Below, in pieces: positions 23,962 through 59,730 of a stretch of DNA of 64,000 bases. The DNA comes from Candidatus Parcubacteria bacterium (lineage in GTDB: Bacteria > Patescibacteriota > Patescibacteriia > CAIXNZ01). Position numbers and translations under genes: made by a program. Position 1 is the first letter of the stretch. Each line of letters starts with the position of its first letter. The notes under the pieces are model-generated. The model was not told the origin of the DNA and made no database searches. It saw only the letters and a list, made by a program, of their open reading frames with translations. Location of the stretch: assembly GCA_026395685.1 (NCBI GenBank), contig JAPLYG010000001.1, forward strand, positions 7,862 to 71,861, read 5' to 3'.

Positions 23962-25029
23962 TTAACGCAGTTTCTTCAAAACATCCATAACCCCCGACTT
24001 CTCTAATTCAAGTAGAGAATTGTAAATAAAAGTTATTGCCTTTTTTTCTCCACCCTTAATGAATTCGGGGAATGCCATTTCTTTTAAATATGGCCAATGA
24101 ATATCGTTCGGTTGTTTTACGAAAAATGTCTTATCGATTTTCTGCGGTTTTATATTTTTAAACTTTTCAGCGAATTCTTTTTTCCAGATAGCGATACATT
24201 GATAGTAATAAAGTCCATTCGTATAATTTTTTTCATCTATATATAAAGCGAAGCCTAATTCAATCCGTTTAAACCAACTCCATTCGTTTCTGCCAAAAAA
24301 TAAATAGAACAACATGTTGTCACTGCTGAATTTTGGGGTATTGCGTGTCACTTGCAATTTATGTTTCTTTAAAAATCCGATAATCCTTTTGTCTTTGTAA
24401 ATCTGTTTTAAAAAGGCAATTAGTTTTTTATTAAAGCCCAGGAAATTTGTTTTGGAAAGGGCGATGTCTTTCTTATCAAAACCCTGAAATGGTTGCATAT
24501 CTAATTCTTTCATGAATTTTAAAAAATTAGTAATAAAATATTTATTGGTTTTATTAATCTTATTATTATGAAAATAATCGTCCAAAAGATTATAGACCTC
24601 AAACCATTCAAATTGTCCTAGGAATTTGTCGATATTACTTTTAACTTGTATACTGCCCTGATCTTTCGTTATAAAACAAACAAAACCTTTATTCATTCGT
24701 AGATATTTTTCAACTTGTCCAAAATCATCCTCTGTAGCGTCGTCATAATAACGGTTTTCATGAGCATTGACTTTAATTTCAATAAATATTTTCTTATAGT
24801 TTTTATCAGTAACCTGCAAATCAATTATTGAATTGCCATATCTGACTTGGCTTTCTAAGGTAAAAGGAGCTTTAAATACCTGATCGTTACTGATATATTT
24901 TACAAATTTATTTAGAAGATCTGCATCAAGAGAAAGTATGATTTTTAAGCTTTCAGTAAAAAAATTCTCCGCAGGAGTCATTCCCGGCTGAGGCTTGTAT
25001 CTATATAAGGTAGAAAAAATATTTTCCAT
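23962..25029 (-). CDS. PD-(D/E)xK nuclease-superfamily protein (hypothetical), first gene of a two-gene minus-strand operon
   Basis: 'GNSIIDLQVTDKNYKKIFIEIKVNAHE' core. The likely start is Met 'MENIFSTLYR' at 25029 rather than the extended ORF start at 25080. Confidence 0.35.
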   Translation of the reverse strand: MENIFSTLYRYKPQPGMTPAENFFTESLKIILSLDADLLNKFVKYISNDQVFKAPFTLESQVRYGNSIIDLQVTDKNYKKIFIEIKVNAHENRYYDDATEDDFGQVEKYLRMNKGFVCFITKDQGSIQVKSNIDKFLGQFEWFEVYNLLDDYFHNNKINKTNKYFITNFLKFMKELDMQPFQGFDKKDIALSKTNFLGFNKKLIAFLKQIYKDKRIIGFLKKHKLQVTRNTPKFSSDNMLFYLFFGRNEWSWFKRIELGFALYIDEKNYTNGLYYYQCIAIWKKEFAEKFKNIKPQKIDKTFFVKQPNDIHWPYLKEMAFPEFIKGGEKKAITFIYNSLLELEKSGVMDVLKKLR

Positions 25030-25046
25030 ATAATAGGTGAAATTTT

Positions 25047-25083
25047 TGGGAAAACAAAAAGGGTCCCACGTCGGTGGCACCCT
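25047..25083 (-). terminator. Hairpin plus U-run immediately upstream of the 23962-25029 start (leader attenuator or terminator of an upstream sRNA)
   Basis: Minus strand reads 'GGGTGCCACCGACGTGGGACCC' followed by 'TTTTTGTTTT', about 20 nt before the ATG. Confidence 0.4.
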
Positions 25084-25782
25084 TTCGGGCGCCCAACAAC
25101 CTTTCGGATGTTGACCATTCGCATAGTGCCGATCATGAGACCGTCTTTATGCGAATGGATTTGAGCGACCATGCCCCAAGGAGGAATCCTTGGGGGTTAG
25201 GTCCAAATTGTATGAAATTATTCATATCATACCTTAAAAAATGGTTGCTGTAAAGCGGGGTTACCGACAGTTTATCTACTCGGGTTTCAGCAAAAAGTTA
25301 TCCACAATTTAATTTTTGACTTACAAAATCACAAAATTATAACATATCTGATTTTGCTTAATCTTAGATGAATTTTCATGGTTGACTTACGAGATGTAAT
25401 TATCTGAAAAACACGATTATAAACTTGACGGAACTGCTAGTTAAGCTATAATTAATGTAACAGTTCTTGTGACTAGCTCTTCGAAAACTTAATATCAGCA
25501 ATAAGATATAAGATTTTATAACTAATTAACATTTAAGTTCGGTTTTAAAAAGGAAAAAATCTATAACCCTAATAAAAGGTTTTAGGTTTGAAGTTAAAAT
25601 ATAAGATTTAAAATTAAAATTCTAAAAAAGTTCCAGTCATTTAATATCCCTATAAGATATTAAATTTAATTTTAAACAATCCAGCAATGGGTATATTTTA
25701 ACAACAGACTTAAGGCCTTTTTTTGTTAAAAGCTATCCCCATTGAGGATAGCTTTTTAATTATTTATAATTAATTTTATTTT

Positions 25783-27054
25783 ATGCAAAACTCAGCCAAA
25801 TTAAAAATAGAGTCAATTCCTATTGCTGAACTTAAGGTGGATATTTACAATCCCAGAATCCACACGCCAGAAGCAATAAGCCAGCTAAAAGAGTCAATTA
25901 AAAAGTTCGGCGAAATTTCGCCAATAGTGGCTAATAGTGCTCCCAACAGGAAAAATATTGTAATTTCGGGGCACATGAGAATAAAAGCCTGCTTAGAGTT
26001 AGGGCTTAAGGAAATACCGACAATTTTTGTGAACATCCCCGACATTAATCGAGAAAAAGAATTAAATCTTCGCATGAACCGTACTGGCTCATGGGATTAT
26101 GAACTTCTTAAGAGTTTTGACTTAAATGTCCTTTTGGATGTTGGGTTCGATAACAGTGATTTATCTTTGATATGGGATCAGAACTTGGAAACTGAAGATG
26201 ACAGTTTTGATGTAGAAACGGAATTAAAAGAGATTAAGAAAACAGACATAAAAGTTGGAGATTTATTCCAGATTGGATCTCATAGGATTTTGTGCGGTAA
26301 TTCATTGGATCTTTCAGCAGTAAAAGGGCTTATGGGCGGTAAAAAGACAAGGATGATATATACCGATCCGATCTACAACATCTCTCTGGATTATAACTTG
26401 GGGATTTCTCAGAAACAAAATTATGGCGGACAAACTAATGACAAGAAAACCGATGCTGAATACAAAGAATTTCTGAAAGGAGCTATTTCTAATGGATTGG
26501 CGGTTTCTGAAAAGGATTTACATGTGTTTGTTTACTGTGACCAAAGATATATTGGTTTAATTCAAGATCTTTATCATGAGCTTGGGATAAAGAACCAAAG
26601 GGTCTGCCTTTGGATTAAGAATGGATTTAATGTAACTCCACAAATAGGTTTTAATAAATCATATGAGCCTTGTGTTTATGGAACAATGGGAACGCCTTTT
26701 CTTTCAGACATAAAGAACTTAAGTGAAATTTTAAACAAGGAAATCGGCACAGGAAACAGAACAATTGATGACATCATGGACTTGTTGGATATTTGGCTGG
26801 TTAAACGTTTGCCAGGCCAAGATTACACACACGCCACAGAGAAGCCAACAACTCTCCATGAAAAAGCAATAAAAAGATGTACATCTCCTGGCGATATTAT
26901 TTTAGATCTATTCGCTGGTTCGGGATCAGCCATTATTAGTAGTGAACAACTTAAGCGAGTATGTTACGCCGTCGAGATTGAACCTATCTTCGTACAACTA
27001 ATTATTAACAGGTTTGAAAAATATGCAAACATCAAAGCAAAAAAGCTCAATTAA
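25783..27054 (+). CDS. ParB-N domain fused to beta-class N4/N6 DNA methyltransferase
   Basis: ParB-like 'ISGHMRIKAC'. MTase motif IV 'MIYTDPIYN' precedes motif I 'ILDLFAGSGSAII...YAVEIEP'. Confidence 0.75.
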   Translation: MQNSAKLKIESIPIAELKVDIYNPRIHTPEAISQLKESIKKFGEISPIVANSAPNRKNIVISGHMRIKACLELGLKEIPTIFVNIPDINREKELNLRMNRTGSWDYELLKSFDLNVLLDVGFDNSDLSLIWDQNLETEDDSFDVETELKEIKKTDIKVGDLFQIGSHRILCGNSLDLSAVKGLMGGKKTRMIYTDPIYNISLDYNLGISQKQNYGGQTNDKKTDAEYKEFLKGAISNGLAVSEKDLHVFVYCDQRYIGLIQDLYHELGIKNQRVCLWIKNGFNVTPQIGFNKSYEPCVYGTMGTPFLSDIKNLSEILNKEIGTGNRTIDDIMDLLDIWLVKRLPGQDYTHATEKPTTLHEKAIKRCTSPGDIILDLFAGSGSAIISSEQLKRVCYAVEIEPIFVQLIINRFEKYANIKAKKLN

Positions 27055-27793
27055 ATATGGTGACATTTTTACGCTAGGCGAACATCTTTTATGTTGCGGA
27101 AATTGTACAGATACGGAATTAGTAAAGAGGTTATTGGGCAATAATAAAATTAAATTAATTTTGGCGGATGTGCCGTATGGCGTGAATTTTACCCAATCAA
27201 AAGAAAGTTTATTGAAAAAAGAGACAAAGCATAAAGATATTGTCGGTGATGAAGATCAAAGCGACGAAAAATACAGTTCCTTCACCCGAGAATGGCTAGA
27301 AGCGATTAAACCTTATTTGGAAAGGAAAAATGCCTTCTATATTTTTAATTCAGATAAGATGATTTTTTCACTCAGACAAGGGATTGAGAATGCTGGTTAC
27401 AATTTTGGGCAGCTTCTAATTTGGGTGAAGAGTCAGGCTGTAATCGGACGAAAGGATTATCTTCCCATGCATGAGCTTATTGCATACGGATGGTGTGGTA
27501 CTCATGAATTTATGAAAAGTAAGGCGAAAAGCGTGCTCTTTTATCCTAAACCTCAAAACAACAATCTTCATCCGACAATGAAACCAATCAGTTTGTTAAG
27601 AGATTTGATTTTGAATAGCACAAGGATTGGTGACATTGTTTATGATGGATTCGTTGGGTCTGGGTCAACTATTTTAAGTTGTGAGCAAACTAAGAGAAAA
27701 TGTTTTGCTTTTGAGATCGAACCCGACTATTGCCGAGTTATTCTTGAGAGATTCGAGAAATTAACAGGCATTAAACCTAAAAAACTAACTTAA
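27014..27793 (+). CDS. Beta-class DNA methyltransferase (phage-type orphan MTase)
   Basis: 'LILADVPYG' (DPPY variant) and 'VYDGFVGSGSTIL...FAFEIEP'. Confidence 0.75.
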   Translation: MKNMQTSKQKSSIKYGDIFTLGEHLLCCGNCTDTELVKRLLGNNKIKLILADVPYGVNFTQSKESLLKKETKHKDIVGDEDQSDEKYSSFTREWLEAIKPYLERKNAFYIFNSDKMIFSLRQGIENAGYNFGQLLIWVKSQAVIGRKDYLPMHELIAYGWCGTHEFMKSKAKSVLFYPKPQNNNLHPTMKPISLLRDLILNSTRIGDIVYDGFVGSGSTILSCEQTKRKCFAFEIEPDYCRVILERFEKLTGIKPKKLT

Positions 27794-27797
27794 TACT

Positions 27798-28205
27798 ATG
27801 AAAGATCTAAAAACTAAAGAGTTATTTCTAGACCAGCTTAAGAAGACCCCAATAATTCAGGTCTGTTGTGAAAAAACTGGCATCAGCAGAGCAACACTTT
27901 ATCGCTGGAAAGCAAAGGATAAGGGTTTTGCTGAAAAATTAGATAAAGCCTTAGGCGAAGGCACTGAATTGGTAAATGATTGCGCTGAAAGCATGTTAAT
28001 TTCAGCTATTAAGGATAAAAACATGACGGCCATCACCTACTGGTTAAAAAATAAGTGTCCTGGATATATGCCTAAGCTGGAATTGTCGGGCAAAGTAAAA
28101 GTGGAAAACGAGGCTCTGTCCGAAGAACAGAAGTCTCTAATCAAGAAAGCCCTTGAGCTTTCTGGCTTAAATATTAATGATCCTAAATATGATAAGTACA
28201 AATAA
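27798..28205 (+). CDS. Phage terminase small subunit-like HTH protein
   Basis: 'KTGISRATLYRWKAKDKGFAEK'. Sits directly upstream of and overlapping the terminase large subunit. Confidence 0.5.
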   Translation: MKDLKTKELFLDQLKKTPIIQVCCEKTGISRATLYRWKAKDKGFAEKLDKALGEGTELVNDCAESMLISAIKDKNMTAITYWLKNKCPGYMPKLELSGKVKVENEALSEEQKSLIKKALELSGLNINDPKYDKYK

Positions 28206-29760
28206 TTTTGACCCAGAGCTAATAGCCAAAATAATGGTTGATCAAAAAGTCAGACAGGAAATCGCCTACAATTCTCATGTATTGTTCTTCCATATTTATT
28301 TTAGCCACTATGTCCAATATCAGACTGCGGATTTCCAGCGTAATCTATTTGATTTGACGCATGATGCTGAAAATCCGTTATTGTGCGTGCTCGCTTTTAG
28401 GGGTTCAGGCAAAAGTTCTATTATGTCAGTATCATTTCCGATTTGGGCAGTACTCGGCAAATTACAGAAAAAACACGTGGTGTTGATTGCCCAAACAATG
28501 GATCAAGCCAAACAAATGCTATTTAACATAAAAACCGAGCTTGAAAATAACCAGCTGCTTAAATCGGATCTGGGACCATTTAAGGAAGAAGAAGACTGGC
28601 GTTCATATACATTGGTATTATCCAAATATGGTGCGAGAATTTCGGCGCTGTCAACTGAGCAAAGCAGTAGAGGCATCAGACACAGAGAAAACCGTCCTGA
28701 TTTGATTATTTTAGATGATGTGGAAAATTCTTATTCCGTTAAGACCAAAGAGTCGAGAGACAAATTATATAATTGGTTTAATTCTGAAATTGTGCCTTTA
28801 GGCGATAAGCAAACTCAAACTGTGATAATTGGGAATCTGCTTCATGAAGATTCTTTGATGATGAGAATAAAGGAAAGAATTACCAGCGACAATCTTACCG
28901 GCAAATTTGTAGAAATACCGATTGTTTATAAAGATGGAAAGATTGCCTGGCCGGGAAAGTATCCGACGATGGCTGATATTGAAAATCTAAAAAAAAGAAT
29001 GCCCGATCCCGCCATCTTTGCTTTGGAGTATGAATTAAGAAAAATTGATGATGGAGATAGAATAATTCATCAGGAATGGATTAAAACTTATGCTAATCTT
29101 CCAGATCCCAATGATAAAACACATAGATACTTATTCACCGTCTCAGGAATTGATCCTGCGGCTTCGACTGATAGCGGAGCATGCTTTACGGCAATAATTT
29201 CTGCTCATATCTACCAAATTCGCGAAAGGCTTAAAATTTTTATTTTGCCTAATCCATTAAACAAAAGGCTGACATTCCCTCAGTTGATAGAGCAGATAAA
29301 ATTATTGGATATACGATTAAAAAGGGAGAAACATAAATTATTTATCGAAGATGTTGGCTATCAAAAAGTATTAATTCAGGAATTGTCTTCTCAGTATTTT
29401 GCCGTAGAAGGAATAAAAGTTGGCTCTCTTAATAAGTATGAAAGATTAAAGTTGACCAGCAATGCGGTTTTTGACGGGACTGTTTTGTTTCCTGAAAAAG
29501 GCTGTGAAGCGTTAATAAATCAGATTGTTAATTTCGGCGTAGAAAGATATAAGGATCTGGCAGATGCCTTTTCGCTATTAATTAACCAGCTGATATCCGC
29601 TAATTATAAGCAGAACGAACTTTATGTGACAACAGGAAATTTTACTCATATAAATATCCCCGGTCAAGACCATTTCACTGAACAGTCAAAGGCGGCAAAG
29701 ATAGCTGAATATAAAAGGTTACAGGATAAAATTAACAGAGACGGGTTTCTGTATTTTTAG
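28177..29760 (+). CDS. Phage terminase large subunit (TerL)
   Basis: P-loop 'AFRGSGKSS', 'LIILDDVEN', and a C-terminal RNaseH-like nuclease region with conserved acidic residues. Confidence 0.7.
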   Translation: MILNMISTNNFDPELIAKIMVDQKVRQEIAYNSHVLFFHIYFSHYVQYQTADFQRNLFDLTHDAENPLLCVLAFRGSGKSSIMSVSFPIWAVLGKLQKKHVVLIAQTMDQAKQMLFNIKTELENNQLLKSDLGPFKEEEDWRSYTLVLSKYGARISALSTEQSSRGIRHRENRPDLIILDDVENSYSVKTKESRDKLYNWFNSEIVPLGDKQTQTVIIGNLLHEDSLMMRIKERITSDNLTGKFVEIPIVYKDGKIAWPGKYPTMADIENLKKRMPDPAIFALEYELRKIDDGDRIIHQEWIKTYANLPDPNDKTHRYLFTVSGIDPAASTDSGACFTAIISAHIYQIRERLKIFILPNPLNKRLTFPQLIEQIKLLDIRLKREKHKLFIEDVGYQKVLIQELSSQYFAVEGIKVGSLNKYERLKLTSNAVFDGTVLFPEKGCEALINQIVNFGVERYKDLADAFSLLINQLISANYKQNELYVTTGNFTHINIPGQDHFTEQSKAAKIAEYKRLQDKINRDGFLYF

Positions 29761-29840
29761 TTATCAACAATGCCTCCTGGACTCAGCAAAGCCGTTGCGT
29801 CATCCCTTGTCTTAGGTAATAACTATTAACCTTAAGACCT

Positions 29841-31181
29841 ATGGATCAACCAACGACGCAAATTAAGGGCAATTTGGGGGCTTTAAGCAACAAACAGGCG
29901 GATTTGAAGCCTATACTCAAGTATTGCCTTTACTCAAGAAAATCAACGGAACAAGAGGAACGGCAGGCTCTTTCCATTGATTCGCAAATTAAAGAAATGT
30001 TAAAAGTTGCAGAAAGAGATAATCTGGAAGTAACCGAGATTAGGCGTGAAAGCCATTCTGCCAAAGCTTCGGGAGCCAGGCCGATTTTCAAACAGCTGTT
30101 AGTTGATATTGAGAAAGGACTATTCAATGGAATTTTAACCTGGGCTCCCGACAGGTTAAGTAGAAACGCTGGGGATCTGGGCGAATTGGTCGATCTGATG
30201 GATCATCAAAAACTGATTGAAATCAGAACATTCAGCCAGATATTCACTAATTCACCTAATGAAAAATTTCTACTGATGATCTTGGGCAGTCAGGCCAAAC
30301 TGGAAAACGATAATAGGGGCGTTAATGTCAAAAGAGGATTAAGAGCCAGAGTTGAAATGGGTTTGTGGCCCGGCCAGGCGCCGACTGGTTATCTGACTAA
30401 TAAAAATGTTGATAAGAAAGGTCAAGTTTTAGTAGATCCAGACCGAGCTCCAGTGCTCCGCAAAATGTTTGAAAAAGTAGCTTATGAAAATGTTAGCGGT
30501 CGTAAACTATATGCCTGGCTAAAATTTGATATAGACTTCAAAACTAAATACGGCAAACATTTAACGCTAAGCAATGTATACAGAATTTTAAATAGCCCGT
30601 TTTATTACGGCAGATTCCAATATCCTAAAGAAAGCGGAAACTGGTATCAGGGCAAGCATGAACCATTAATATCGCAAGAACTCTATGAACTGGTACAGCA
30701 AGCGATTACCAGAGGCCAGCATATTAAATCAGAAGCAAAGGAATTCATGTTTGTTAAGCTGATTAAGTGCGGAGCCTGCGGATCAGGAATAACCGCAGAT
30801 GAAAAATTCAAAAAGCTATTGGACGGATCAGTAAGCAGATATGTTTATTACGGATGCACTAAGAGCAAGGATATCCATTGCAAGACAGGTTATATAAGAG
30901 AGGACGAATTATTAAAGCAGATGCTGGAATTGATTGATCGGGTCGATCTTAATCAGCTGGGCATAAAAGAAAAAATAGAAAATGAAATAGACAGGTACTA
31001 TAAATTCAAAACCAGCGTGCTTGGCGAGTCAGACACAAAGAAAAATAAGCAAAAAGATCTGGATATTAAAAATTATGCCAAGTACATCTTAAAGGAAGGC
31101 AGTGTTTATGAAAAAAGAGATTTGTTATCTAACTTAAGAAGCAAGCTTGTACTTAAGGATAAAAAGTTGATGCTGGAATAG
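29841..31181 (+). CDS. Large serine recombinase/integrase
   Basis: Resolvase catalytic region 'YCLYSRKSTEQEERQALSIDSQ'. Recombinase domain, then zinc ribbon 'CGACGSG...YYGC' and a coiled-coil tail. Confidence 0.8.
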   Translation: MDQPTTQIKGNLGALSNKQADLKPILKYCLYSRKSTEQEERQALSIDSQIKEMLKVAERDNLEVTEIRRESHSAKASGARPIFKQLLVDIEKGLFNGILTWAPDRLSRNAGDLGELVDLMDHQKLIEIRTFSQIFTNSPNEKFLLMILGSQAKLENDNRGVNVKRGLRARVEMGLWPGQAPTGYLTNKNVDKKGQVLVDPDRAPVLRKMFEKVAYENVSGRKLYAWLKFDIDFKTKYGKHLTLSNVYRILNSPFYYGRFQYPKESGNWYQGKHEPLISQELYELVQQAITRGQHIKSEAKEFMFVKLIKCGACGSGITADEKFKKLLDGSVSRYVYYGCTKSKDIHCKTGYIREDELLKQMLELIDRVDLNQLGIKEKIENEIDRYYKFKTSVLGESDTKKNKQKDLDIKNYAKYILKEGSVYEKRDLLSNLRSKLVLKDKKLMLE

Positions 31182-31277
31182 GTAAAATAGAAAAACGCCC
31201 TGCTATTGCGGGCGTTCTTCTGTTTCTCTGAATTTGTACGTCCTTGAGGCACTCGGGTCTCTCGAACGCTTTCTTCT

Positions 31278-31352
31278 TGGTACCGCCTAGGGGAATCGAA
31301 CCCCTGTTACCAGGATGAAAACCTGGTGTCCTAACCACTAGACGAAGGCGGC
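31278..31352 (-). tRNA. tRNA-Glu(UUC), CCA encoded
   Basis: Minus strand reads 'GCCGCCTTCGTCTAGTGGTTAGGACACCAGGTTTTCATCCTGGTAACAGGGGTTCGATTCCCCTAGGCGGTACCA'. Cloverleaf with anticodon loop 'TTTTCAT'. Confidence 0.85.
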
Positions 31353-31356
31353 GTAA

Positions 31357-31611
31357 TTATTTAAGATTAAAACCTAATTTGTTAAGTAACTCTTTACGAA
31401 TTTGATAATTTTTCTTTAATATAAGTTCTATCTTTCTCGCTTCAGTTTTAGTATTATATTCTTCTATATATATTAATTCAAAGGGTATTCTACATTTAGT
31501 TGATTTTGTTTTGCCATTATTATGTTCTTTTAGCCTATTTGTTGGGTTATCACTTATTCCAATATAATAACCTTTATCATTTAAGCTTTGTAAAATATAT
31601 AAATAGTACAT
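31357..31611 (-). CDS. GIY-YIG nuclease-family small protein (YhbQ/UPF0213-like)
   Basis: 'YYLYILQSLNDKGYYIGISDNPTNRLKEHN' (GIY-YIG motif, Arg and Glu) and '...TKTEARKIELILKK'. The ORF-track N-terminus 'MVRTPGF...' is a read-through of the tRNA fragment, so the start is set at the internal Met. Confidence 0.7.
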   Translation of the reverse strand: MYYLYILQSLNDKGYYIGISDNPTNRLKEHNNGKTKSTKCRIPFELIYIEEYNTKTEARKIELILKKNYQIRKELLNKLGFNLK

Positions 31612-31620
31612 ATTAATCAA

Positions 31621-31694
31621 GGCAGGATGTCCGCCGGAGGCGGATCCGCCTTTGGCGGAAAAACCTGGTGTCCTAACCACTAGACGAAGGCGGC
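31621..31694 (-). repeat. Duplicated 5' half of tRNA-Glu (acceptor, D-arm and anticodon 5' stem) fused to GGATCCGCC palindromic hairpins
   Basis: Minus strand reads 'GCCGCCTTCGTCTAGTGGTTAGGACACCAGGTTTT' then 'TCCGCCAAAGGCGGATCCGCCTCCGGCGGA'. Identical to tRNA-Glu positions 1-35, diverging inside the anticodon loop. Confidence 0.6.
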
Positions 31695-31882
31695 AAGTTT
31701 AGTTCAAAGTTTATAGTGCAAAGTTTAAAGTTGCGTAATAATCATTTTAAACTAAAAATCCCCTAAGGGATTATGGTTATATTATAGGGTAAAAATCAAT
31801 TATCGTCAAGGCTTGACCTTTGTCAGGATATTTGATTAAGTAACTGTAGGACTAACTGTAATAATAACCAAGGAGGATTAAG

Positions 31883-32329
31883 ATGAAATACAAGTCTAAA
31901 AGATCAGCTCATCTGGTAATTGGAGAAATGATTGCGGAAACAGTGACCAAGATTTGTTCTTTAGCTGACTTGACCAGTTTAGAAGCTGCTACTCTTTTAG
32001 GGATGCTGGCAGCGGAGCTGGAGATGATGAAGCGAGTAAATATCTCGCTGGATGATTATAAGGCACTTTGCGCCACTTTGTGGAAAATTAAACAAAGCTG
32101 TTCCGATGATCTGGCTGAAAAGCTTTTGCCGGCGGCAATATTTGTTATTGAAGAAGAACCTGAAAAAAATGATGTGACTTATATTCCTTGCCCTGCTAAA
32201 GATTGCAATGGGCTGATGGAATCTAAGGGAAAATCTTCGGCTAAGGGTGACGATGGAAAGAGTTCGTATCTTACTTATATTTGTCCGAGATGTGGTCGCG
32301 AACAAAAAGTTCAACAGCCTCGATGGTGA
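31883..32329 (+). CDS. Hypothetical protein with C-terminal zinc-ribbon (CPxxDC...CPRCG)
   Basis: RBS 'AGGAGG' upstream. 'CPAKDCNG' and 'CPRCGREQ'. Confidence 0.4.
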   Translation: MKYKSKRSAHLVIGEMIAETVTKICSLADLTSLEAATLLGMLAAELEMMKRVNISLDDYKALCATLWKIKQSCSDDLAEKLLPAAIFVIEEEPEKNDVTYIPCPAKDCNGLMESKGKSSAKGDDGKSSYLTYICPRCGREQKVQQPRW

Positions 32330-40059: not shown

Positions 40060-40158
40060 AGATGATAGATTATAGATAATGGATTATCCCGCGAAGCGGG
40101 AAGCCGCTACGCGGCTTAGATTTTAGTTTAAGATATTTTGCCGAAAAAGTCAATGATT

Positions 40159-43784: not shown

Positions 43785-46700
43785 ATGTCTATGTTCTATC
43801 GCATCTATCGTCGGCCGCTACTCTCAACAGCCAGGACTGAAGAATTACAGCAAGTTCTGGCAGAAGTGGTGCCGGAAATTTCTGGGCTGGAAACTGAAAA
43901 AGTATTCTGCCTGGAAACAAAAAGGGAACTGACTGACGAGGAAATGGATCGGCTCAGGTGGCTCTTAGGCGGAGCTGACAGAGCCAAATGTCTGTCAGAC
44001 AGAACTTTTTTCCAAGATCACAGCAATGTGATAGAAATTGGTCCGCGGCTGCATTTTGAAACAGCTAATTCAACCAATGCTGTTTCCATTTGCCAGTCCT
44101 GTGAACTACCTGTGATCAGGCTGGAAGAAGCCAGACGTTACAAATTCATAAGCACTCAAACCTTGGGCAATGGCAAGATCGATCTGATTCTGCCGTTGTT
44201 GCACGACAAAATGACAGAGTGTCCGTATCCCAATCAGCTGACAACTTTTGTCACTGACAAAAAGCCGGAGCCGGTAAAGTATATTCCGGTAATGGAACAG
44301 GGAATGGATGCTTTGGTCAAAGCCAATGCTGAATATGGCACTGGCATGGACAAGGCGGATTTGCAGTACTATTTGTATCTCTTCACTGAAGTTGCCAAAC
44401 GCAATCCCACTGATGTTGAATGGTGCGATCTGGGCAACTGTAATTCTGAACATTCGCGACATCATGTCTTCCGCGCCAAGCTGATTATCGACGGACAGGC
44501 AATGCCCTTCACGCTGATGGATATTATCAAAAGCACGCTGACCAATCTCAGCAACTCTATTATTGCTTTTGATGATAATGCCTCGGCGATTAAAGGTGTG
44601 CCAGTTGGTTTCCTCATTCCTGAAAGACCTGGTTTACCTTCGCCAGTGCGTATGGCCGAACTTTTACTCCATTACGTGCTGACCTGCGAAACGCACAATC
44701 ACCCCTGCTTATGGGCAGCATATCCCGGAGCAGGAACGGGTGGCGGTGGCCGCAGACGCGATAATCAGGGTTTGGGCAGAGGCGGCTTAATTGCTGCCTG
44801 TTCAGCTGGATTTTTTGGCGGCAATCTCAATATTCCGGGCTATCCCCTGGAATGGGAAGATCCAAACTTTGCCTATGATCCGCTGTGCGAAAGCCCGCTG
44901 AAATTTTTCCGCAAAGCTGTTAATGGCGCTTTTGATGACGGCAATCAGTGTGGCGAGCCAGTCATTCTGACTTTCTTCGAGAGCTTTGGCTTGCGTATCG
45001 GTGCCGAACGCTGGGAGTACATCAAGCCGATCATGTTTACCGGTGGCTTTGGCTTCCTTGATGATCGCCATGTTAAAAAACACGAACCTGTTCCTGGCTG
45101 GCTGATTGTCCGAATCGGCGGCAAGGCCCATGAAGTTGGTTTTGGCGGCGGTGCTGCTTCCAGCTTAATGGGTGGTCAGAACATTGCAGCCCTTGATTTC
45201 AAATCAGTGCAGCGCGCTGATGGGGAAATGGCTCGCAAAACCGACCAGGTTATCCGCACTTGCGTCATGAAGGGTGATGATAATCCGATTGAAACGATTC
45301 ATGACCAAGGCGCTGGCGGACCTGGTAATGTGCTTAAAGAAATCATGGCTCCGGCTGGCGGTAGGATTGATATTCGCAACATCATCCTGGGCGATAAAAC
45401 CATGTCACCGGTGGCGATCTGGGTTTCCGAGTTCCAGGAAAATATGGCGATGTTAATCAAGCCAGAGCGCTGGGAAGAATTCAAGGCCATCTGCGACCGG
45501 GAAAAAGTCCCCTGCGCCGTGGTGGGTACGATCACTGGCGACGGCAAAGTCGTGGTTATTGATTCTCAGAACAATACCACTCTCTTTGATCTCAGTCTCC
45601 AGCAGATTTTCGGTGAATATCCTCTGAAAACTTATGAGGATACGCGCCGCAAACTAGAACTTCAGCCGCTTAATTTACCCGAAGATCTGTCAGTGGCTCA
45701 AGCTCTGGAAAAAACTTTCAAGCTGTTACAAGTTGGTTCGCAGGAATGGGCAGTTCACGTGGTTGACCGCAGTGTTACACCGCATGTGGTGCAGCAGCAG
45801 TGTGTCGGCCCCTGGCAATTGCCGATCAACAAATATTCGGTGATTGCGCCCAGCCCCTTCAGTCATACTGGCATGACCAATTCAGTAGGCACTAAACCCA
45901 TCATCGGCTTGATTTCACCGCAAGCCAGCGCCAGAATGTCTGCTGCTGAAGCTTTGTTAAGGCTGATGTTTGTTCCGGTCAGCAGTCGAGATGAAATCAA
46001 AGCATCCATAAACTGGATGCTGGCAGCCAAAGTCCCGGGCGGGATTGCCTGGCTGTACGATGCTGCTGTGGCTTTGCGCGATTTCATGAATAGCATCGGC
46101 ATGGATGCTGATGGCGGCAAAGATTCTTTATCAATGGCTACTAATGCCGGCGGAGAAAGAGTCAAATCGCCCAGCACAGTAGTAGTCAGCACCTATGCTG
46201 CTTGTACGGATTATCGCCAGAGATTGCAGCCTTACCTCAAGAATCCTGGCCAAACCAAACTGTTATTTGTTGATTTGGCTAATGGCAAAACCCGCTTAGG
46301 CGCGAGCGCCTTAGCTCAAGTCTGTGGCCAAGTCGGCAATGACTGTCCTGATGTTGAGAATGTTGATTTAGTCAATCAGGCTTTTGATAGCGTCCAGAAA
46401 TTGCTGGTCGCTGACGGCTTGATTGTCTCTGGCCAGCTGCGCAGTCGTAATGGTCTGATCTCGTCGTTGTGTGAAACAGCCTTTGCCGGCAACTGCGGAC
46501 TGTCAGTTAACATTCAACATCCGACAGCTTCGGCTAAAGAGGTACTGTTTTGCGAAGAGCTGGGTTTTGTCCTGGAATATCTGCCGGAAAACGAAGACGA
46601 CTTGTTGGCAGCGTTTGCCGAAGCCGGTCTTTCGAAGCATATCCAACAGATCGGAGTAACCACTACGGATAAGCAAATCATTATTCGTTTTAATGGGGAA

Positions 46701-47684
46701 CCGATCTTCAATGAACCGAGTGATCTCTGGCTACAAAAATGGCGGGAAACATCTTTCCGGATGAAAGCCTTGCGTTCAGTCAAAGCAGTCGTGGCTCAAG
46801 AAAGAGCCAATATTGCCAAAGGCAACGGCCTGGAATTTTCTCTCAGCTTTAATCCGGATTTAATTACTCCGGTGAAGACTGATTTTCCCGGCAAACCGAA
46901 AGTGGCCATTATCCGCGATGAAGGCACTAACAGCCAAGAAGAAATGAAAGTCGCGTTTTACTTGGCTGGCTTTGAACCCTATGATGTCACCATCACTGAT
47001 CTGGCCAGCGGAAAAGTCAGTTTGCGCGATTTTCGCGGCGTCGCTTTCCCAGGCGGATTCAGTTATAAAGATGTCCTGGGTTCAGCTGTTGGCTGGGCCG
47101 GAGTAATCAAGTTTAATCCGGTTCTTGTCAAAGAATTTTTAGCCTTTTTTCAACGGACAGATACTTTCAGCGTGGGCATCTGTAATGGCGATCAGGTAGA
47201 AATCTGGCTGGGAGTGCTTTATCCCGAGCTTGATGAATTGTCGCAGCCCAGGATGTACTTCAACTTGAGTGAATCTTTTGAATCGCGATTTGTCAGAGTG
47301 AGCATCTTGGATTCTCCAGCAATCATGTTGAAGGGTATGGCTGGATCAATTCTGGGAATCCACGTAGCTCATGGCGAAGGTCGTTTTTACTTCCCGGATG
47401 ACCAAATCTATCGTAGTATCCTATCCAAAGGTTTGGCGCCGGTAAGGTACATTGATCCGAGCGATCAACCGACTGAGGATTATCCCTTCAATCCCAATGG
47501 ATCTCCTGCGGGTATTGCGGCTTTGTGTTCTGCTGACGGCAGGCATCTTGCTATTATGCCGCATCCAGAACGTACAGTCCTAGTCAGGCAGTGGCCTTAT
47601 TTGCCCTACGGGACAAATTGGGAAAACTCGCCCTGGCTGAAAATGTTCCAGAACGCCTATCAGTGGTGTATGGAACAGAAGTAA
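43785..47684 (+). CDS. purL: Phosphoribosylformylglycinamidine synthase, single-chain large form (PurL/FGAM synthase)
   Basis: 1299-aa protein. AIRS-like domains, and a C-terminal class-I glutamine amidotransferase with catalytic 'GICNGDQ' and 'MPHPER'. Confidence 0.9.
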   Translation: MSMFYRIYRRPLLSTARTEELQQVLAEVVPEISGLETEKVFCLETKRELTDEEMDRLRWLLGGADRAKCLSDRTFFQDHSNVIEIGPRLHFETANSTNAVSICQSCELPVIRLEEARRYKFISTQTLGNGKIDLILPLLHDKMTECPYPNQLTTFVTDKKPEPVKYIPVMEQGMDALVKANAEYGTGMDKADLQYYLYLFTEVAKRNPTDVEWCDLGNCNSEHSRHHVFRAKLIIDGQAMPFTLMDIIKSTLTNLSNSIIAFDDNASAIKGVPVGFLIPERPGLPSPVRMAELLLHYVLTCETHNHPCLWAAYPGAGTGGGGRRRDNQGLGRGGLIAACSAGFFGGNLNIPGYPLEWEDPNFAYDPLCESPLKFFRKAVNGAFDDGNQCGEPVILTFFESFGLRIGAERWEYIKPIMFTGGFGFLDDRHVKKHEPVPGWLIVRIGGKAHEVGFGGGAASSLMGGQNIAALDFKSVQRADGEMARKTDQVIRTCVMKGDDNPIETIHDQGAGGPGNVLKEIMAPAGGRIDIRNIILGDKTMSPVAIWVSEFQENMAMLIKPERWEEFKAICDREKVPCAVVGTITGDGKVVVIDSQNNTTLFDLSLQQIFGEYPLKTYEDTRRKLELQPLNLPEDLSVAQALEKTFKLLQVGSQEWAVHVVDRSVTPHVVQQQCVGPWQLPINKYSVIAPSPFSHTGMTNSVGTKPIIGLISPQASARMSAAEALLRLMFVPVSSRDEIKASINWMLAAKVPGGIAWLYDAAVALRDFMNSIGMDADGGKDSLSMATNAGGERVKSPSTVVVSTYAACTDYRQRLQPYLKNPGQTKLLFVDLANGKTRLGASALAQVCGQVGNDCPDVENVDLVNQAFDSVQKLLVADGLIVSGQLRSRNGLISSLCETAFAGNCGLSVNIQHPTASAKEVLFCEELGFVLEYLPENEDDLLAAFAEAGLSKHIQQIGVTTTDKQIIIRFNGEPIFNEPSDLWLQKWRETSFRMKALRSVKAVVAQERANIAKGNGLEFSLSFNPDLITPVKTDFPGKPKVAIIRDEGTNSQEEMKVAFYLAGFEPYDVTITDLASGKVSLRDFRGVAFPGGFSYKDVLGSAVGWAGVIKFNPVLVKEFLAFFQRTDTFSVGICNGDQVEIWLGVLYPELDELSQPRMYFNLSESFESRFVRVSILDSPAIMLKGMAGSILGIHVAHGEGRFYFPDDQIYRSILSKGLAPVRYIDPSDQPTEDYPFNPNGSPAGIAALCSADGRHLAIMPHPERTVLVRQWPYLPYGTNWENSPWLKMFQNAYQWCMEQK

Positions 47685-47691
47685 TCCAAAC

Positions 47692-47724
47692 GCCCCGTTG
47701 TCGCAAGACGCGGGGCTTTTTTTA
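47692..47724 (+). terminator. Rho-independent terminator after purL
   Basis: 'GCCCCGTTGTCGCAAGACGCGGGGC' followed by 'TTTTTTT'. Confidence 0.8.
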
Positions 47725-47924
47725 ATTGGTGAGTAGTGTGTTGGTTAGGAAGCTAGTAGGTGGAGGTTTCATGGGTTAGGTGTTGAATAAATACTTTACC
47801 TTAACACTCTGCACTTACTAGCATCTTTACCTTTGCACTTAACCGTATGTTTGACAATTTTCAACATTTTTAATATGGTAAATACGAATTGGTTACAAGT
47901 TTGTACTTTAACAAGGAGAATATT

Positions 47925-49043
47925 ATGGAAGAACAAAAGGGAATGACGTATCAGGGAACCGGCGTAAACTACGATGACATGGATCCATTTAAAAGAGAGG
48001 CGCAACAAGCCGGACTGAAAACAGCCGGTAACATCAGCCGTCTTAATATGACGGAATTTGCTCCGAGCCGGGGCGAGAGCGCGTATCTGGTTGATTGCGG
48101 GAATCATTTTTTGGCGCAGGTCGTGGAAGGCTTGGGTACCAAGAATATTGTGGCCGAAGCCATGCAACAGCTAACCGGTGAATTGCATTTTGATTTAATT
48201 GCCCAGTGCTGCATGGCCATGATCGTCAATGACCTGATTACTGTCGGCGCCTTGCCCATTTCCGCGGCCATGTATTTGGCAGTGGGTGATTCAGCCTGGT
48301 TCAAAGACGAAGCGCGCGCCAAGAATCTGATTGACGGCTGGATGCATGCCTGCAATAAGTCTGGCTGTACCTGGGGTGGTGGGGAAACACCCACACTCAA
48401 AGGCATTATCAATCCAAATACAATCGATCTGAGTGGCGCGGCCATGGGCATCATTAGGAATAAACAGCATTTGATTACTGGCGAGAAGATCAAGCATGGC
48501 GATGTCATCATCGTTTTTGCCAGTTCCGGAATTCATGCCAATGGTCTGACTCTGGCCAGACGGATCGCTGAAAAGTTGTCCCAAGGCTACTTAACTCCAA
48601 TTGATTATATTGGCACGACATATGGCCGAGCCTTGCTGGATCCGACCGTGATCTATGTTCCTATCATCGAAGATTGTCAGTATTGGAATGTGAACGTACA
48701 CTACGCAGTCAATATCACAGGCCATGGTTGGCGCAAGCTGATGCGTAGTCAGGAACCTTTTATTTATGTCATTGAAACAATTCCTGATCCTCAGCCGGTT
48801 TTCCAGATCATGCAAAAGCATGGTCCGGTGGACGACGAAGAAGCCTATGGCAACCTGAATATGGGCGGTGGCTTTGCCATCTTTGTGTCAGAAAAGGATG
48901 TGCCTCTGGTCGTTGATATTTCCAAGGCTACCAACATACCGATTGTCGGCTACGGACATATTGAAAAAAGTGGTGAGGACAAGAAAGTCATCATTGAACC
49001 CAAAGGCATTACCTTTGATAGTAAAAGTCTGCAGGTTCGCTGA
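47925..49043 (+). CDS. purM: PurM-family protein (AIR synthetase / AIR-synthase-related)
   Basis: RBS 'AAGGAGAA' before the ATG at 47925. 'VEGLGTKN', 'MIVNDLITVGALPI', 'SGCTWGGGETPTLKG' and 'GDVIIVFASSGIHANGLTL' align with PurM motifs. Confidence 0.7.
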   Translation: MEEQKGMTYQGTGVNYDDMDPFKREAQQAGLKTAGNISRLNMTEFAPSRGESAYLVDCGNHFLAQVVEGLGTKNIVAEAMQQLTGELHFDLIAQCCMAMIVNDLITVGALPISAAMYLAVGDSAWFKDEARAKNLIDGWMHACNKSGCTWGGGETPTLKGIINPNTIDLSGAAMGIIRNKQHLITGEKIKHGDVIIVFASSGIHANGLTLARRIAEKLSQGYLTPIDYIGTTYGRALLDPTVIYVPIIEDCQYWNVNVHYAVNITGHGWRKLMRSQEPFIYVIETIPDPQPVFQIMQKHGPVDDEEAYGNLNMGGGFAIFVSEKDVPLVVDISKATNIPIVGYGHIEKSGEDKKVIIEPKGITFDSKSLQVR

Positions 49044-49283
49044 TTTGATTTTTAAAGGGATTCGTGGAAACGCGGGTCCCTTTTTCTAATTGTCAAAAAG
49101 GTTAGGGTTAGGATGTTGATAGGTGTAAAGTGCTTGGGTTAGGTGACCTTGCCCTGCCTGCCAATAGGAAGTAGACAGGCTAAACACTCCACTCTTAATA
49201 TCGTCTTTACCATTACACCTAACTCTTGTTTGACAAAATATAGATTTTATTATAATTTCAAGCTAGAAAAGAAGGGTCAAAAC

Positions 49284-49808
49284 ATGGAGATTAATGAAAG
49301 TCTAGCTAAGCAGATTCAGGCAAGAACTCGTGAATTTCAGAAAAAACGTCTCTGGAAGAAATCCACGGCCATTGCAAAGACATTTGGCAGAAAAGATGTC
49401 CGTGAAGCCAGCGATCATACGACTGTTACGTATGATTTTAATCAGAATCGATGCTGTGGTTTTTTCAGGGTCTACCTGTCAAATTTTGTTTACGGCGGAT
49501 ACTATGTGAATGTAGAAATCGCGGGCAAAACGGTTTTGTCCGCCCAGGAAACATTCGCTGATTCTGAAGACGCCAAACATTTTCCTTTCCAGATCTGCAA
49601 GTATGGGAGCAGTTTGCTCTTTGTTAAGATTTACATCCCGGGCGATTGGGAAAAACTTATGGATATGAAGTTTATGCGCAAGGAAGTAAAAGCCCTGGAA
49701 GCTGCAGAACAGGGCAGGCTTAAAGAACATGACGAAACAGCGGAAAAATCAAGACCCCTTACCAGGGAGGAACAAGAATTAGCCGCGAATTTCGGCATCA
49801 AAGGCTAA
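49284..49808 (+). CDS. Hypothetical protein (start at ATG 49284 preferred over the extended ORF start 49143)
   Basis: A repeat element and a TTGACA/TATAAT promoter occupy 49150-49260. No known motif. Confidence 0.4.
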   Translation: MEINESLAKQIQARTREFQKKRLWKKSTAIAKTFGRKDVREASDHTTVTYDFNQNRCCGFFRVYLSNFVYGGYYVNVEIAGKTVLSAQETFADSEDAKHFPFQICKYGSSLLFVKIYIPGDWEKLMDMKFMRKEVKALEAAEQGRLKEHDETAEKSRPLTREEQELAANFGIKG

Positions 49809-49815
49809 AAATTAT

Positions 49816-49844
49816 GCCCGCATCTTCGGATGCGGGTTTTTTTA
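49816..49844 (+). terminator. Rho-independent terminator
   Basis: 'GCCCGCATCTTCGGATGCGGG' followed by 'TTTTTTT'. Confidence 0.8.
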
Positions 49845-50054
49845 TTTGTTGTTAGTGAATCGGTATCGATAATCGTTTCGTTTATCGTTAATCGTTTGAC
49901 GTGACGTATATAGTACAACGTTCAACGTAACCTGCCTGTCGGCAGACAGGCTAAACACTCCACTCTTACCAGCATCATTACCATTACACCTTGCCTTTAA
50001 ATAAAAATACCCTCGTGTTCCGAAGGTATTTTTAAGTAATTTGGCTGTCTGAGT

Positions 50055-56247: not shown

Positions 56248-56315
56248 ATAAAGAGGTTAATATTGATAGAGTAATTATAACACAATTTTAGCTTAAATTT
56301 AATAAATTTTGGGAA

Positions 56316-56360
56316 TAATAAAAGGGCGGTGCTTTTGCCCGCCCCTTGGTTGTCTTTTTT
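56316..56360. terminator. Bidirectional terminator between the giant gene start and the PEPCK stop
   Basis: 'GGGCGGTGCTTTTGCCCGCCC' with an A-run before and a T-run after. Confidence 0.6.
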
Positions 56361-59308: not shown

Positions 59309-59382
59309 TTGGGCGAGTAAAGGGAATCGAACCCTTGTTAACGGGACCACAACCCGCTGCTCTACCATTGAGCTATACCCGC
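59309..59382 (-). tRNA. tRNA-His(GUG) with encoded G-1 and C73. CCA not fully encoded.
   Basis: Minus strand reads 'G-GCGGGTATAGCTCAATGGTAGAGCAGCGGGTTGTGGTCCCGTTAACAAGGGTTCGATTCCCTTTACTCGC-C'. Anticodon loop 'TTGTGGT'. Confidence 0.8.
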
Positions 59383-59528: not shown

Positions 59529-59587
59529 CGTGTGTCCCCGCTAGGAATCTCCCGCGAAGCAGGATCCGCCTCTGGCGGAGAACCTTG
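59529..59587 (-). repeat. GGATCCGCC-hairpin element plus a duplicated 3' end of tRNA-Arg
   Basis: Minus strand immediately 3' of tRNA-Arg reads 'TCCGCCAGAGGCGGATCC...', then 'TTCCTAGCGGGGACAC', a repeat of the tRNA T-stem and acceptor 3' strand. Confidence 0.55.
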
Positions 59588-59659
59588 TGTCCCCGCTAGG
59601 AATCGAACCTAGATCTAAAGCTTAGAAGGCTTTCGTTCTATCCATTGAACTACAGGGAC
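59588..59659 (-). tRNA. tRNA-Arg(UCU). CCA not encoded.
   Basis: Minus strand reads 'GTCCCTGTAGTTCAATGGATAGAACGAAAGCCTTCTAAGCTTTAGATCTAGGTTCGATTCCTAGCGGGGACA'. Anticodon loop 'CTTCTAA'. Confidence 0.8.
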
Positions 59660-59679
59660 TTATTTAATTTGTGGGTACT

Positions 59680-59730
59680 CCATTGTCCCGCGGCGCGGGA
59701 TCCGCCTCCGGCGGAAACTACAGGGACGAA
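59680..59730 (-). repeat. tRNA-Arg 5' fragment interrupted by GGATCCGCC-hairpin element
   Basis: Minus strand reads 'GTCCCTGTAGTT' (tRNA-Arg positions 1-12), then 'TCCGCCGGAGGCGGATCCCGCGCCGCGGGA', then 'CAATGGA' (D-loop). Confidence 0.55.

Follow-up and report, generated by a model that had tools for sequence, protein, structure and literature searches.

GIY-YIG nuclease genes, GC-rich hairpins and partial tRNA copies at bacterial tRNA genes: a probable mobile cassette beside tRNA-Glu in a Parcubacteria genome

The stretch of DNA analysed here, referred to as the window, comprises 64,000 nucleotides (nt) of contig JAPLYG010000001.1 from a Candidatus Parcubacteria bacterium (assembly GCA_026395685.1) and contains three transfer RNA (tRNA) genes. 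The subject is one of these, tRNA-Glu(UUC), together with a small gene for a GIY-YIG nuclease and a partial copy of the tRNA, which lie beside it and are described as a cassette. The tRNA, the nuclease gene and the partial copy all lie on the minus strand, and the locus is described in that sense. The intact tRNA gene, with an encoded CCA end, was located at 31278-31352 by ARAGORN and Rfam (tRNA, 66.2 bits), as the original prediction had it. A 4-nt spacer (TTAC, 31353-31356) separates its first nucleotide from the stop codon of the GIY-YIG gene (31357-31611, stop codon included; Pfam PF01541). This gene had also been predicted upstream of the tRNA, but its product has 84 amino acids (aa) rather than 85, the latter being the number of codons with the stop. 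Ahead of its ATG lie an 11-nt leader CCTTGATTAAT (31612-31622, minus strand), the bases CATCCTG (31623-31629, minus strand), which equal nt 36-42 of the tRNA, and a GC-rich double hairpin of 30 nt (31630-31659). The order is completed by a pseudo-copy of tRNA-Glu nt 1-35 at 31660-31694, identical in 35/35 positions and hence as exact as had been claimed.

The duplicated 35-nt string GCCGCCTTCGTCTAGTGGTTAGGACACCAGGTTTT is found in exactly two copies in the window (31318-31352 and 31660-31694), with none expected by chance in 100 shuffles, and the 3' part of tRNA-Glu occurs there only once. The GIY-YIG gene is the one real open reading frame (ORF) between both copies. The duplicated half had been described as breaking off within the anticodon loop. 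The break after nt 35 is indeed there, but the copy is interrupted rather than truncated, as nt 36-42 resume past the hairpin. The upstream element comprises nt 1-42 of the tRNA, split by the hairpin between anticodon positions 35 and 36. Read from 31659 to 31630, this hairpin is TCCGCC-AAA-GGCGGA followed by TCCGCC-TCC-GGCGGA, i.e. two 6-bp stems with 3-nt loops that form a nearly perfect palindrome. The bases CATCCTG are able to pair 4 bp of the anticodon stem with pseudo-copy nt 28-31, and in the computed RNA fold the anticodon stem closes around the hairpin. The functional tRNA is composed of the cassette-side nt 1-35 joined to nt 36-75. The tRNA-Glu gene keeps its function because the insert brings a spare copy of the first 35 bases.

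Upstream of the pseudo-copy, and not of the intact tRNA, lies a strong promoter-like site (TTGACG-17-TATAAT, 31809-31781, score 11/12), followed by a small conserved hairpin AATCCCTTAGGGGATT at 31772-31757. Together they form a block (31757-31809, minus strand) identified by promoter scan and by conservation in relatives. The block is kept in the window and in five related loci (L002, L192, L187, L119 and L128; L numbers denote related loci throughout). Its distance to the tRNA is about 51 nt in L128, which lacks a cassette, and its distance to the pseudo-copy is about 57 nt in the window. Relative to the block, the pseudo-copy occupies the place of the original tRNA 5' end. The ORF may be expressed from this promoter, which is the tRNA's own. 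A separate observation is that the AATCCCTTAGGGGATT hairpin with its T-run resembles a terminator set between promoter and tRNA-Glu, in the window as well as in L002, L119, L128, L187 and L192.

The encoded protein matches the Pfam GIY-YIG family PF01541 over residues 1-70 with 62.7 bits (cutoff 22.6, E 4e-17). All of 28 homologues share Y5, I17, G18, R26, H30 and E62; conservation of Y16 and N68 among them is at least 90%. The positions of the catalytic Tyr, Tyr, Arg, His, Glu and Asn are retained, which we take to be the equivalents of the catalytic residues of I-TevI. The AlphaFold2 model has a mean pLDDT (predicted local distance difference test) of 93.7 and a confident GIY-YIG fold with the topology beta-beta-alpha-alpha-beta-alpha-alpha. 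In Foldseek, every match with a probability of 1.00 is a GIY-YIG protein, and the best are 1zg2 and Slx1. The five top-ranked Slx1 nuclease-domain chains reach template modelling (TM) scores of 0.66-0.73 at a root mean square deviation of 1.9-3.9 Å and 28-33% identity, whereas I-TevI (0.44-0.49) and UvrC (0.50) score lower. Sequence matches in the PDB point the same way, with UPF0213 (1ywl/1zg2) at E 1e-13 and Slx1 at 3e-4, and no I-TevI or UvrC match in that search. From sequence and model, the protein is a predicted nuclease that consists of a minimal Slx1/UPF0213-type catalytic domain. With its 84 aa it comprises this domain alone, without the C-terminal RING/Zn finger, and so does not qualify as an orthodox Slx1. 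A DNA-binding domain is lacking, as no sequence exists outside the catalytic domain, and the protein is not a two-domain homing endonuclease of the I-TevI/SegB type. No named NCBIfam family was found for it. Exact look-ups of this protein, a 148-aa neighbour, TsaD, the recombinase described below and a protein designated P0001 returned no matching contigs.

Database homologues are 45-100% identical and come chiefly from Patescibacteria. About 9 of 56 are annotated as longer proteins of 105-114 aa, and six of the nine that were read start with MVRT. The N-terminus of this long form, MVRTPGFSAxGGSASGGHP, is the translated anticodon arm of the pseudo-tRNA plus the hairpin, which was the first sign that the tRNA piece and the hairpin travel with the gene. 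The corresponding 107-aa ORF of the window, starting in the pseudo-tRNA, was rejected as the true gene, as its extra residues are translated tRNA and hairpin and the long form occurs in only about 9 of 56 homologues. Public gene calls that start inside the pseudo-tRNA, an annotation artefact, include P0009, P0013, P0016, P0019, P0021, P0025, P0026 and P0032. The aberrant N-terminus can be used as a search signature for tRNA-associated cassettes. Such prokaryotic proteins were assigned to the Slx1 cluster by Dunin-Horkawicz et al. (PMC1564403). In the same study, fusions or operons of Slx1-like genes with COG4123 and TrmH-type (SPOUT) methyltransferases were described, the TrmH-type fusion was taken as a hint of a role in RNA metabolism, and no tRNA-gene linkage was reported for these proteins (PMC1564403).

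At least 567 relatives of the protein are present in contigs representing one genome per species, and the best 80 were examined. In 69 of these 80 loci a tRNA gene lies on the same strand within 150 nt, and in 56 within 30 nt, which bears out the proposed link between the GIY-YIG gene and the tRNA with its partial duplicate. The tRNA is downstream of the ORF in 57 loci and upstream in 12. It is tRNA-Glu in 52 loci; Arg, Thr, Cys, Ser, Pro, Gln, Tyr, Gly and Ile account for the rest. Most tRNA-linked loci contain a partial pseudo-copy of their own tRNA beyond the other side of the ORF. These pseudo-copies match their own tRNA at 32-35 of 35 positions, with 35/35 in ten of the 5'-type loci compared, while the tRNA-Glu 5' halves of different loci share a mean of 23.5/35. 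At its other end the pseudo-copy begins at tRNA nt 1, and most loci show no duplication of the upstream flank. The gap from stop codon to tRNA in 5'-type loci is mostly 0-10 nt, and in some the stop codon lies inside the tRNA. The leader before the ATG is most often about 4-20 nt long.

A mirror form of the cassette consists of the intact tRNA, the ORF, a few nt, a hairpin and the 3' part of the tRNA (L058, L026, L034, L074, L017 and L045). In L058, for example, the ORF is followed by GGTTTT, the hairpin and nt 36-73. Normal and mirror forms are intermixed in the protein tree. Hosts include many classes of Patescibacteria, Bacteroidota, Ignavibacteria and others, among them the named isolates Marivirga tractuosa (L026) and Pararhodonellum marinum (L074). 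An assembly artefact was rejected, as the layout recurs in more than 60 independent assemblies, complete genomes included. Viral spread was searched for with little result: among 2.9 million viral contigs the protein had one match, and the 50,697 phage records searched with tblastn contained seven weak matches (32-37% identity), in six Listeria-phage records and Ralstonia phage RP13, none of them in a T4-like phage or of the SegB type. Judging from these searches, the family appears to be chromosomal, neither phage-borne nor SegB-like.

The hairpins within the pseudo-copies sit at recurrent positions, which are nt 12/13, 22/23, 35/36 and 55/56 in raw numbering. A GC-rich insert at 35/36 is present in 37 of 38 tRNA-Glu loci (the exception is L037), and 24 of the 38 parse as two adjacent perfect hairpins, compared with 9 of 7600 shuffles. 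At least eight different stem sequences occur, and each is still complementary, so that the stems covary between loci. The 22/23 hairpin is found in Glu, Pro and Arg loci, often as the identical 20-nt palindrome CCTGCCTGCCGGCAGGCAGG, which accompanies divergent ORF clades and different tRNAs. Position 55/56 corresponds to TTC|GA in the T loop; this site and 12/13 are used in other loci. Hairpin and ORF-proximal end of the pseudo-copy are commonly 6-7 nt apart, with a range of about 5-18 nt. In tRNA-Glu loci of the 35/36 class, nt 41-42 is the most frequent end of the pseudo-copy, 6-7 nt beyond the hairpin; in the 22/23 class it is nt 27-33. Since the hairpin precedes the ORF in one form and follows it in the mirror form, its location goes with the break in the tRNA copy and is not linked to ORF expression. 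A function as intrinsic terminator or translation signal was rejected, given that no T-run follows the hairpin and that it lies on either side of the ORF depending on the form. A motif GGTT(N1-2)|(C/G)A seems to be common to the three tRNA-Glu hairpin sites, with L009 and L014 among the exceptions.

Four copies of such double hairpins exist in the window. Two of them belong to an ORF-less instance (59533-59727, minus strand) around tRNA-Arg(UCU) at 59587-59659. On its upstream side, tRNA nt 1-12 (59727-59716) are followed by a double hairpin (59715-59686), nt 13-19 (59685-59679) and a 19-nt spacer whose last bases, AAATTAAATAA, are similar to the GIY-YIG ORF at its 3' end. Downstream, AAGGTTC (59586-59580), a double hairpin (59579-59550) and the last 17 nt of the tRNA (59549-59533) are arranged on the same strand. 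The neighbouring tRNA-His (59311-59382) has no such flanking copies. The pattern at tRNA-Arg would fit a derivative of a mobile element that arose by internal deletion, and so would that of L001, in which an ORF-less unit also has a spacer resembling the ORF 3' end. The remaining double hairpin, AAGCCGCGTAGCGGCTT plus CCCGCTTCGCGGGA on the minus strand, is solitary and intergenic (40087-40117) and has no tRNA similarity; such hairpins are therefore not confined to tRNA loci. In addition, a palindrome GCCTGTCGGCAGACAGGC at 49934-49951 resembles the 22/23-type hairpin.

Syntenic relatives of the tRNA-Glu locus were gathered through TsaD, as the 148-aa neighbour gave no relatives in the metagenome scan. 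From their comparison, a tRNA-Glu divergent from tsaD is ancestral in the lineage. L128 (TsaD 73% identical to that of the window) represents the empty site, with the same promoter block and an uninterrupted tRNA that is identical in 73/73 nt, a comparison covering all of the window tRNA but the terminal CA of the encoded CCA. L002, like the window, carries the cassette with the 35/36 hairpin; the hairpins are identical in 30/30 positions and the proteins are 80% identical. L002 has an extra 22/23 hairpin that is absent from the window locus. Nucleotide 7 is T in the window and A in L002, in each case as in the own tRNA. L192 and L187 (TsaD 85% and 71%) contain another variant with the 22/23 palindrome, a pseudo-copy end at about nt 32-34 and a protein of 61% identity. 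In L119 (TsaD 82%), nt 1-18 are followed by an unrelated insert of about 200 nt without GIY-YIG and then by the tRNA. This insert (about 1740-1940, minus sense) is relatively GC-rich with internal inverted repeats, followed by a diverged stretch resembling nt 17-28. L148 (TsaD 52%) is an ORF-less and hairpin-less remnant with ATT at 35/36.

The site is thus polymorphic for presence and absence, with L128 and others empty and the window, L002, L192 and L187 occupied. Comparison with the empty site indicates that the cassette sits within a former single tRNA gene and leaves a working tRNA. The proposal that the locus is the footprint of a mobile GIY-YIG insertion is supported by the empty syntenic site, the other variant in L192 and L187 and the fragment-only L119. 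Rather than an old, fixed duplication without a GIY-YIG link, the related genomes show the opposite. Successive insertions, also proposed originally, have their counterpart in tandem units at other loci (L001, L004, L007 and L033). Tandem or nested units occur in L060 as well. Taken with the ORF-less units, these alignments indicate that the cassette has been gained, lost, replaced and amplified. In the complete isolate genome of Marivirga tractuosa (L026, 2683-3500), two tandem intact tRNA-Glu genes are followed by repeated cassette units, each with a GIY-YIG ORF, GGGTTC, a double hairpin and the tRNA 3' end plus terminator and flank. The second ORF starts after the duplicated flank.

In tRNA sense, the order at the locus is promoter, original nt 1-35, double hairpin, nt 36-42, leader, nuclease gene and a second nt 1-35 fused to the original nt 36-75. 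This anatomy, its recurrence in several phyla and in both orientations, the covarying hairpins, the site polymorphism and the tandem and ORF-less forms argue for a selfish nuclease cassette aimed at tRNA genes, with duplication rather than splicing making the invaded gene whole again. We regard this explanation as probably correct, with less confidence in any single mechanistic step than in the whole. The cassette would achieve the effect of an intron, a host gene that still works, through partial gene duplication. Transcription would run from the tRNA promoter through pseudo-copy, hairpin and ORF into the tRNA, which RNase P would release. The nuclease would nick or break tRNA-gene DNA at or near the hairpin positions. 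As it has no DNA-binding domain, an Slx1-like domain-only nuclease probably reads structure, such as extruded stem-loops or a palindrome, and not a long sequence. In RecA-type recombinational repair, the pseudo-copy and, on the opposite side, the full tRNA could serve as portable homology arms. Repair may then copy the cassette into an empty tRNA allele or make local tandem duplications, as for phage SegB. Repeated cutting and repair would keep the pseudo-copy identical to the tRNA of the host.

Several points weigh against this explanation. An uninterrupted tRNA, the same as that of the empty allele and presumably cleavable, lies only 4 nt from the ORF. With an intact target beside the ORF, the usual immunity of homing endonuclease genes, in which the target is destroyed, does not apply. 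Cleavage by the nuclease is suggested by the recurrent hairpin and break positions. How a protein of 84 aa would recognise a specific sequence is not evident. Simple homing leaves unexplained how the cassette shifts to a new tRNA species with a fresh pseudo-copy matching the host, and also why the hairpin is always placed a few nt inside the pseudo-copy from its ORF-proximal end. This offset between hairpin and duplication end, mostly 6-7 nt, suggests a single coupled event. Since the identical palindrome CCTGCCTGCCGGCAGGCAGG occurs with divergent ORFs, hairpins may move on their own. Co-transcription is suggested by the position of the promoter.

The main rival explanation puts the hairpins first. 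GC-rich hairpins would be the primary mobile units, similar to miniature inverted-repeat transposable elements, the GIY-YIG protein would act as a structure-specific "transposase" or resolvase, and the tRNA duplication and the place of the ORF would follow from hairpin insertion and repair. We consider this unlikely, even though a number of observations speak for it. ORF-less hairpins are found at the tRNA-Arg gene and in the intergenic spacer of the window and at tRNA-Val in L079, and the same 20-nt palindrome is shared by Glu, Pro and Arg pseudo-copies with divergent ORFs. L002 has an additional 22/23 hairpin not present in the syntenic window locus, and the ATT of L148 at 35/36 could be an excision footprint. 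The nearest structural relatives are the Slx1 nucleases, which act on branched DNA, and in the clade of L057, L066 and L075 the ORF itself lies between GC-rich inverted repeats. Against it, GIY-YIG enzymes are not known to serve as transposases, and the ORF-less units resemble internal deletions of ORF-bearing ones. Moreover, hairpins in essential tRNA genes would be lethal, so that a coupled duplication step is still required. L057, L066 and L075 form one clade without an adjacent tRNA, in which the bracketing repeats read CCCCCACACC...GGTGTGGGGG (around 3001-3255 in L066 and L075); the ORF looks as if it were placed in the loop of a long hairpin.

A domesticated host module is less probable still, and we regard it as a rather remote explanation. 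The nuclease would serve the maintenance of tRNA genes or tRNA and be co-expressed with tRNA-Glu, and the pseudo-tRNA with its hairpin would be a structured cis-regulatory or processing leader. It is in line with the conservation between the window and L002, where hairpins agree in 30/30 positions compared with 80% for the proteins, as pseudo-copy and hairpin are better conserved than the ORF. The covarying stems, the anticodon stem that can close around the hairpin, and the fusion or linkage of Slx1-like genes elsewhere to TrmH-type SPOUT and COG4123 methyltransferases (PMC1564403) also agree with it. However, close relatives differ in whether they carry the cassette, one of them having an empty site with an identical tRNA, and many different tRNAs are involved. 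The hairpin changes sides of the ORF between configurations and is thus bound to the tRNA break. Tandem arrays and decayed remnants are typical of selfish elements.

The neighbourhood raises the question of a prophage. On the 5' side of the tRNA lie core genes, namely the 148-aa ORF, tsaD and tsaE. On its 3' side, a phage-like block (25783-31181, plus strand) encodes a ParB-methylase, a second methylase, a helix-turn-helix protein, a large terminase (PHROG 38, E 4e-66) and a large serine recombinase (29841-31181). The recombinase gene is convergent with tRNA-Glu, and the block ends 97 nt from the tRNA 3' end. The 35-nt repeat could accordingly be seen as an attachment-site duplication of the attL/attR type left by this element, given that terminase, methylases and serine recombinase lie directly 3' of the tRNA and that related recombinases in viral contigs often end beside a tRNA. 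Among 37 viral-contig loci with related recombinases, 11 have a tRNA (Asp, Ser, Glu, Gln, Trp or Lys), always downstream of the recombinase gene and mostly convergent with it. None of the 37 contains a GIY-YIG gene, and L101 has recombinase and tRNA-Glu without duplication. Furthermore, the copies are just 342 nt apart and enclose the GIY-YIG gene alone, the repeats lie on the tRNA side away from the prophage with the recombinase outside them, no third copy exists in the 64 kb, and the 5' half is the part duplicated. Cassettes in L192, L187 and L002 occur without this prophage. The geometry, the absent third copy and the recombinase relatives without cassette refute this origin, which we consider extremely improbable. 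Of the tRNA-Glu 3' flank (31240-31277), about 33 nt are common to relatives, after which the sequence diverges in all. Elsewhere in the window, the Rfam LOOT RNA (RF03000, 80.9 bits, E 1e-13) was found at 25076-25203 (minus strand), directly upstream of ORF 23962-25080 (minus strand). GC content is 0.45-0.50 in 44001-50000 and 56001-58000 and 0.31-0.40 in the rest of the window; the high-GC stretches cover a 1299-aa ORF (43785-47684) and part of ORF 56359-58152.

The weakest alternative, a group I intron or its remnant with a homing endonuclease in the tRNA anticodon loop, for which the original prediction had drawn an intron analogy and proposed a test for a group I intron-like RNA fold, has virtually no probability left: the break does follow a U of the anticodon loop, the location of group I introns in bacterial tRNAs (PMC3984707), but no Rfam intron family reached its gathering score in the whole window, a search of 31150-31900 at E ≤ 10 returned the tRNA alone and no group I or II signal, the would-be intron ends in U and not G, the same cassettes occur at D-arm and T-loop positions and in mirror orientation, and the complete, uninterrupted tRNA after the ORF means that no splicing is needed; introns of both groups were rejected.

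Phage SegB is the closest characterised analogue of the selfish cassette favoured here. SegB of T4 and T6 is a free-standing GIY-YIG homing endonuclease encoded in a tRNA gene cluster, and its co-localisation with tRNA genes of many isotypes is statistically significant (PMC2330249; PMC13096335). It recognises a conserved motif of the tRNA T loop, cuts inside tRNA genes and homes (PMC2330249), with its gene and flanking tRNA DNA being copied into empty alleles through breaks and homologous recombination. It also drives a segmental amplification of tRNA and segB that depends on the nuclease and on homologous recombination and yields tandem duplications (PMC13096335). The cassette resembles this system in its GIY-YIG catalytic domain and in a gene placed among tRNA genes, as expressed by the co-localisation in 69 of 80 loci. 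It differs in that SegB is larger, has a 27-bp recognition sequence and is carried by phages, whereas the cassette protein is a bare Slx1/UPF0213 domain of 84 aa and is chromosomal. The GC-rich hairpins and the precise partial tRNA duplication are not described for SegB.

A second comparison concerns fungal mitochondria. Mobile GIY-YIG ORFs are there reported by Paquin, Lang and co-workers to insert in genes together with a replacement gene end, and GC-rich double-hairpin elements reportedly occur in the mitochondrial DNA of Allomyces. The likeness consists in a nuclease ORF within an essential gene whose function is kept by a duplicated or replaced segment and not by splicing, and in GC-rich double hairpins at insertion borders in an AT-rich genome. 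Unlike the cassette, which uses bacterial tRNA genes with hairpins at defined positions, the fungal ORFs have organellar protein-coding targets and form in-frame fusions. The Allomyces double hairpins resemble the cassette hairpins, of which there are four in the window and 24 parsed in relatives, in form alone, and no sequence relationship is expected.

The best sequence and structure matches of the cassette protein are Slx1/UPF0213 proteins (PDB 1zg2 and 1ywl; Slx1 7cq3 and 6seh). Slx1 cuts branched and stem-loop DNA, a possible route for a domain-only enzyme to act on hairpins, but unlike orthodox Slx1 the cassette protein has neither a RING/Zn domain nor an Slx4 partner. Genomic islands and prophages that target tRNA genes are similar in that they insert in a tRNA, regenerate the gene by an element-borne partial copy and leave a direct repeat. 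They employ an integrase of the tyrosine or serine type, are kilobases long and usually leave a second copy of the 3' part. The cassette, by contrast, is a 342-nt unit without integrase; its duplication covers the 5' part of the tRNA (in the mirror form the 3' part), and the displaced copy contains a hairpin. Group I introns in tRNA genes with homing endonuclease genes share the target region and the principle of a selfish nuclease gene that spares the tRNA; in the cassette, however, ribozyme and splicing are absent and duplication restores the gene.

No account of minimal GIY-YIG/hairpin cassettes associated with bacterial tRNA genes was found in open-access papers and preprints, and an earlier description elsewhere is possible. 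The underlying logic is already known, with a nuclease gene exploiting tRNA genes in the case of SegB and a mobile ORF with a replacement gene end in fungal mitochondria. What appears to be new is the clade of the enzyme, the placement of hairpins at defined tRNA positions, the precision of the partial duplication and the chromosomal distribution over several phyla. A more far-reaching interpretation, which we put forward tentatively and with slightly less than even confidence, is that of an undescribed class of mobile elements. In this class, a minimal structure-specific Slx1-like GIY-YIG nuclease and GC-rich (double) hairpins would invade tRNA genes at the D arm, at anticodon 35/36 and in the T loop, and the gene would be regenerated by partial target duplication ("intron-free homing"). 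ORF-less units would be non-autonomous, and the class would be widespread in Patescibacteria and Bacteroidota as a hidden driver of rearrangement and concerted evolution in tRNA genes. A bolder version of this interpretation has the enzyme recognise the cloverleaf of the tRNA, be it in extruded DNA or in RNA. COG4123 is a tRNA m6A37 methyltransferase. Cloverleaf recognition would fit the methyltransferase fusions in the same protein clade, both the TrmH-type (PMC1564403) and those with COG4123.

If correct, the selfish cassette would represent a third way for selfish nuclease genes to persist inside an essential gene, beside introns and inteins, namely by bringing a spare copy of the displaced part. 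It would explain why small genes annotated as "GIY-YIG nuclease family" are so often found beside tRNA-Glu in Patescibacteria and Bacteroidota, why the surroundings of tRNA genes in these AT-rich genomes contain tRNA fragments and GC-rich palindromes, and where the spurious N-terminus of some database proteins originates. It would also provide a minimal nuclease of 84 aa with a possibly structure-defined target. The recently shown link between SegB and the amplification of tRNA segments would be extended from phages to bacterial chromosomes, and the loci of Marivirga tractuosa and Pararhodonellum marinum offer isolates in which the mechanism could be tested.

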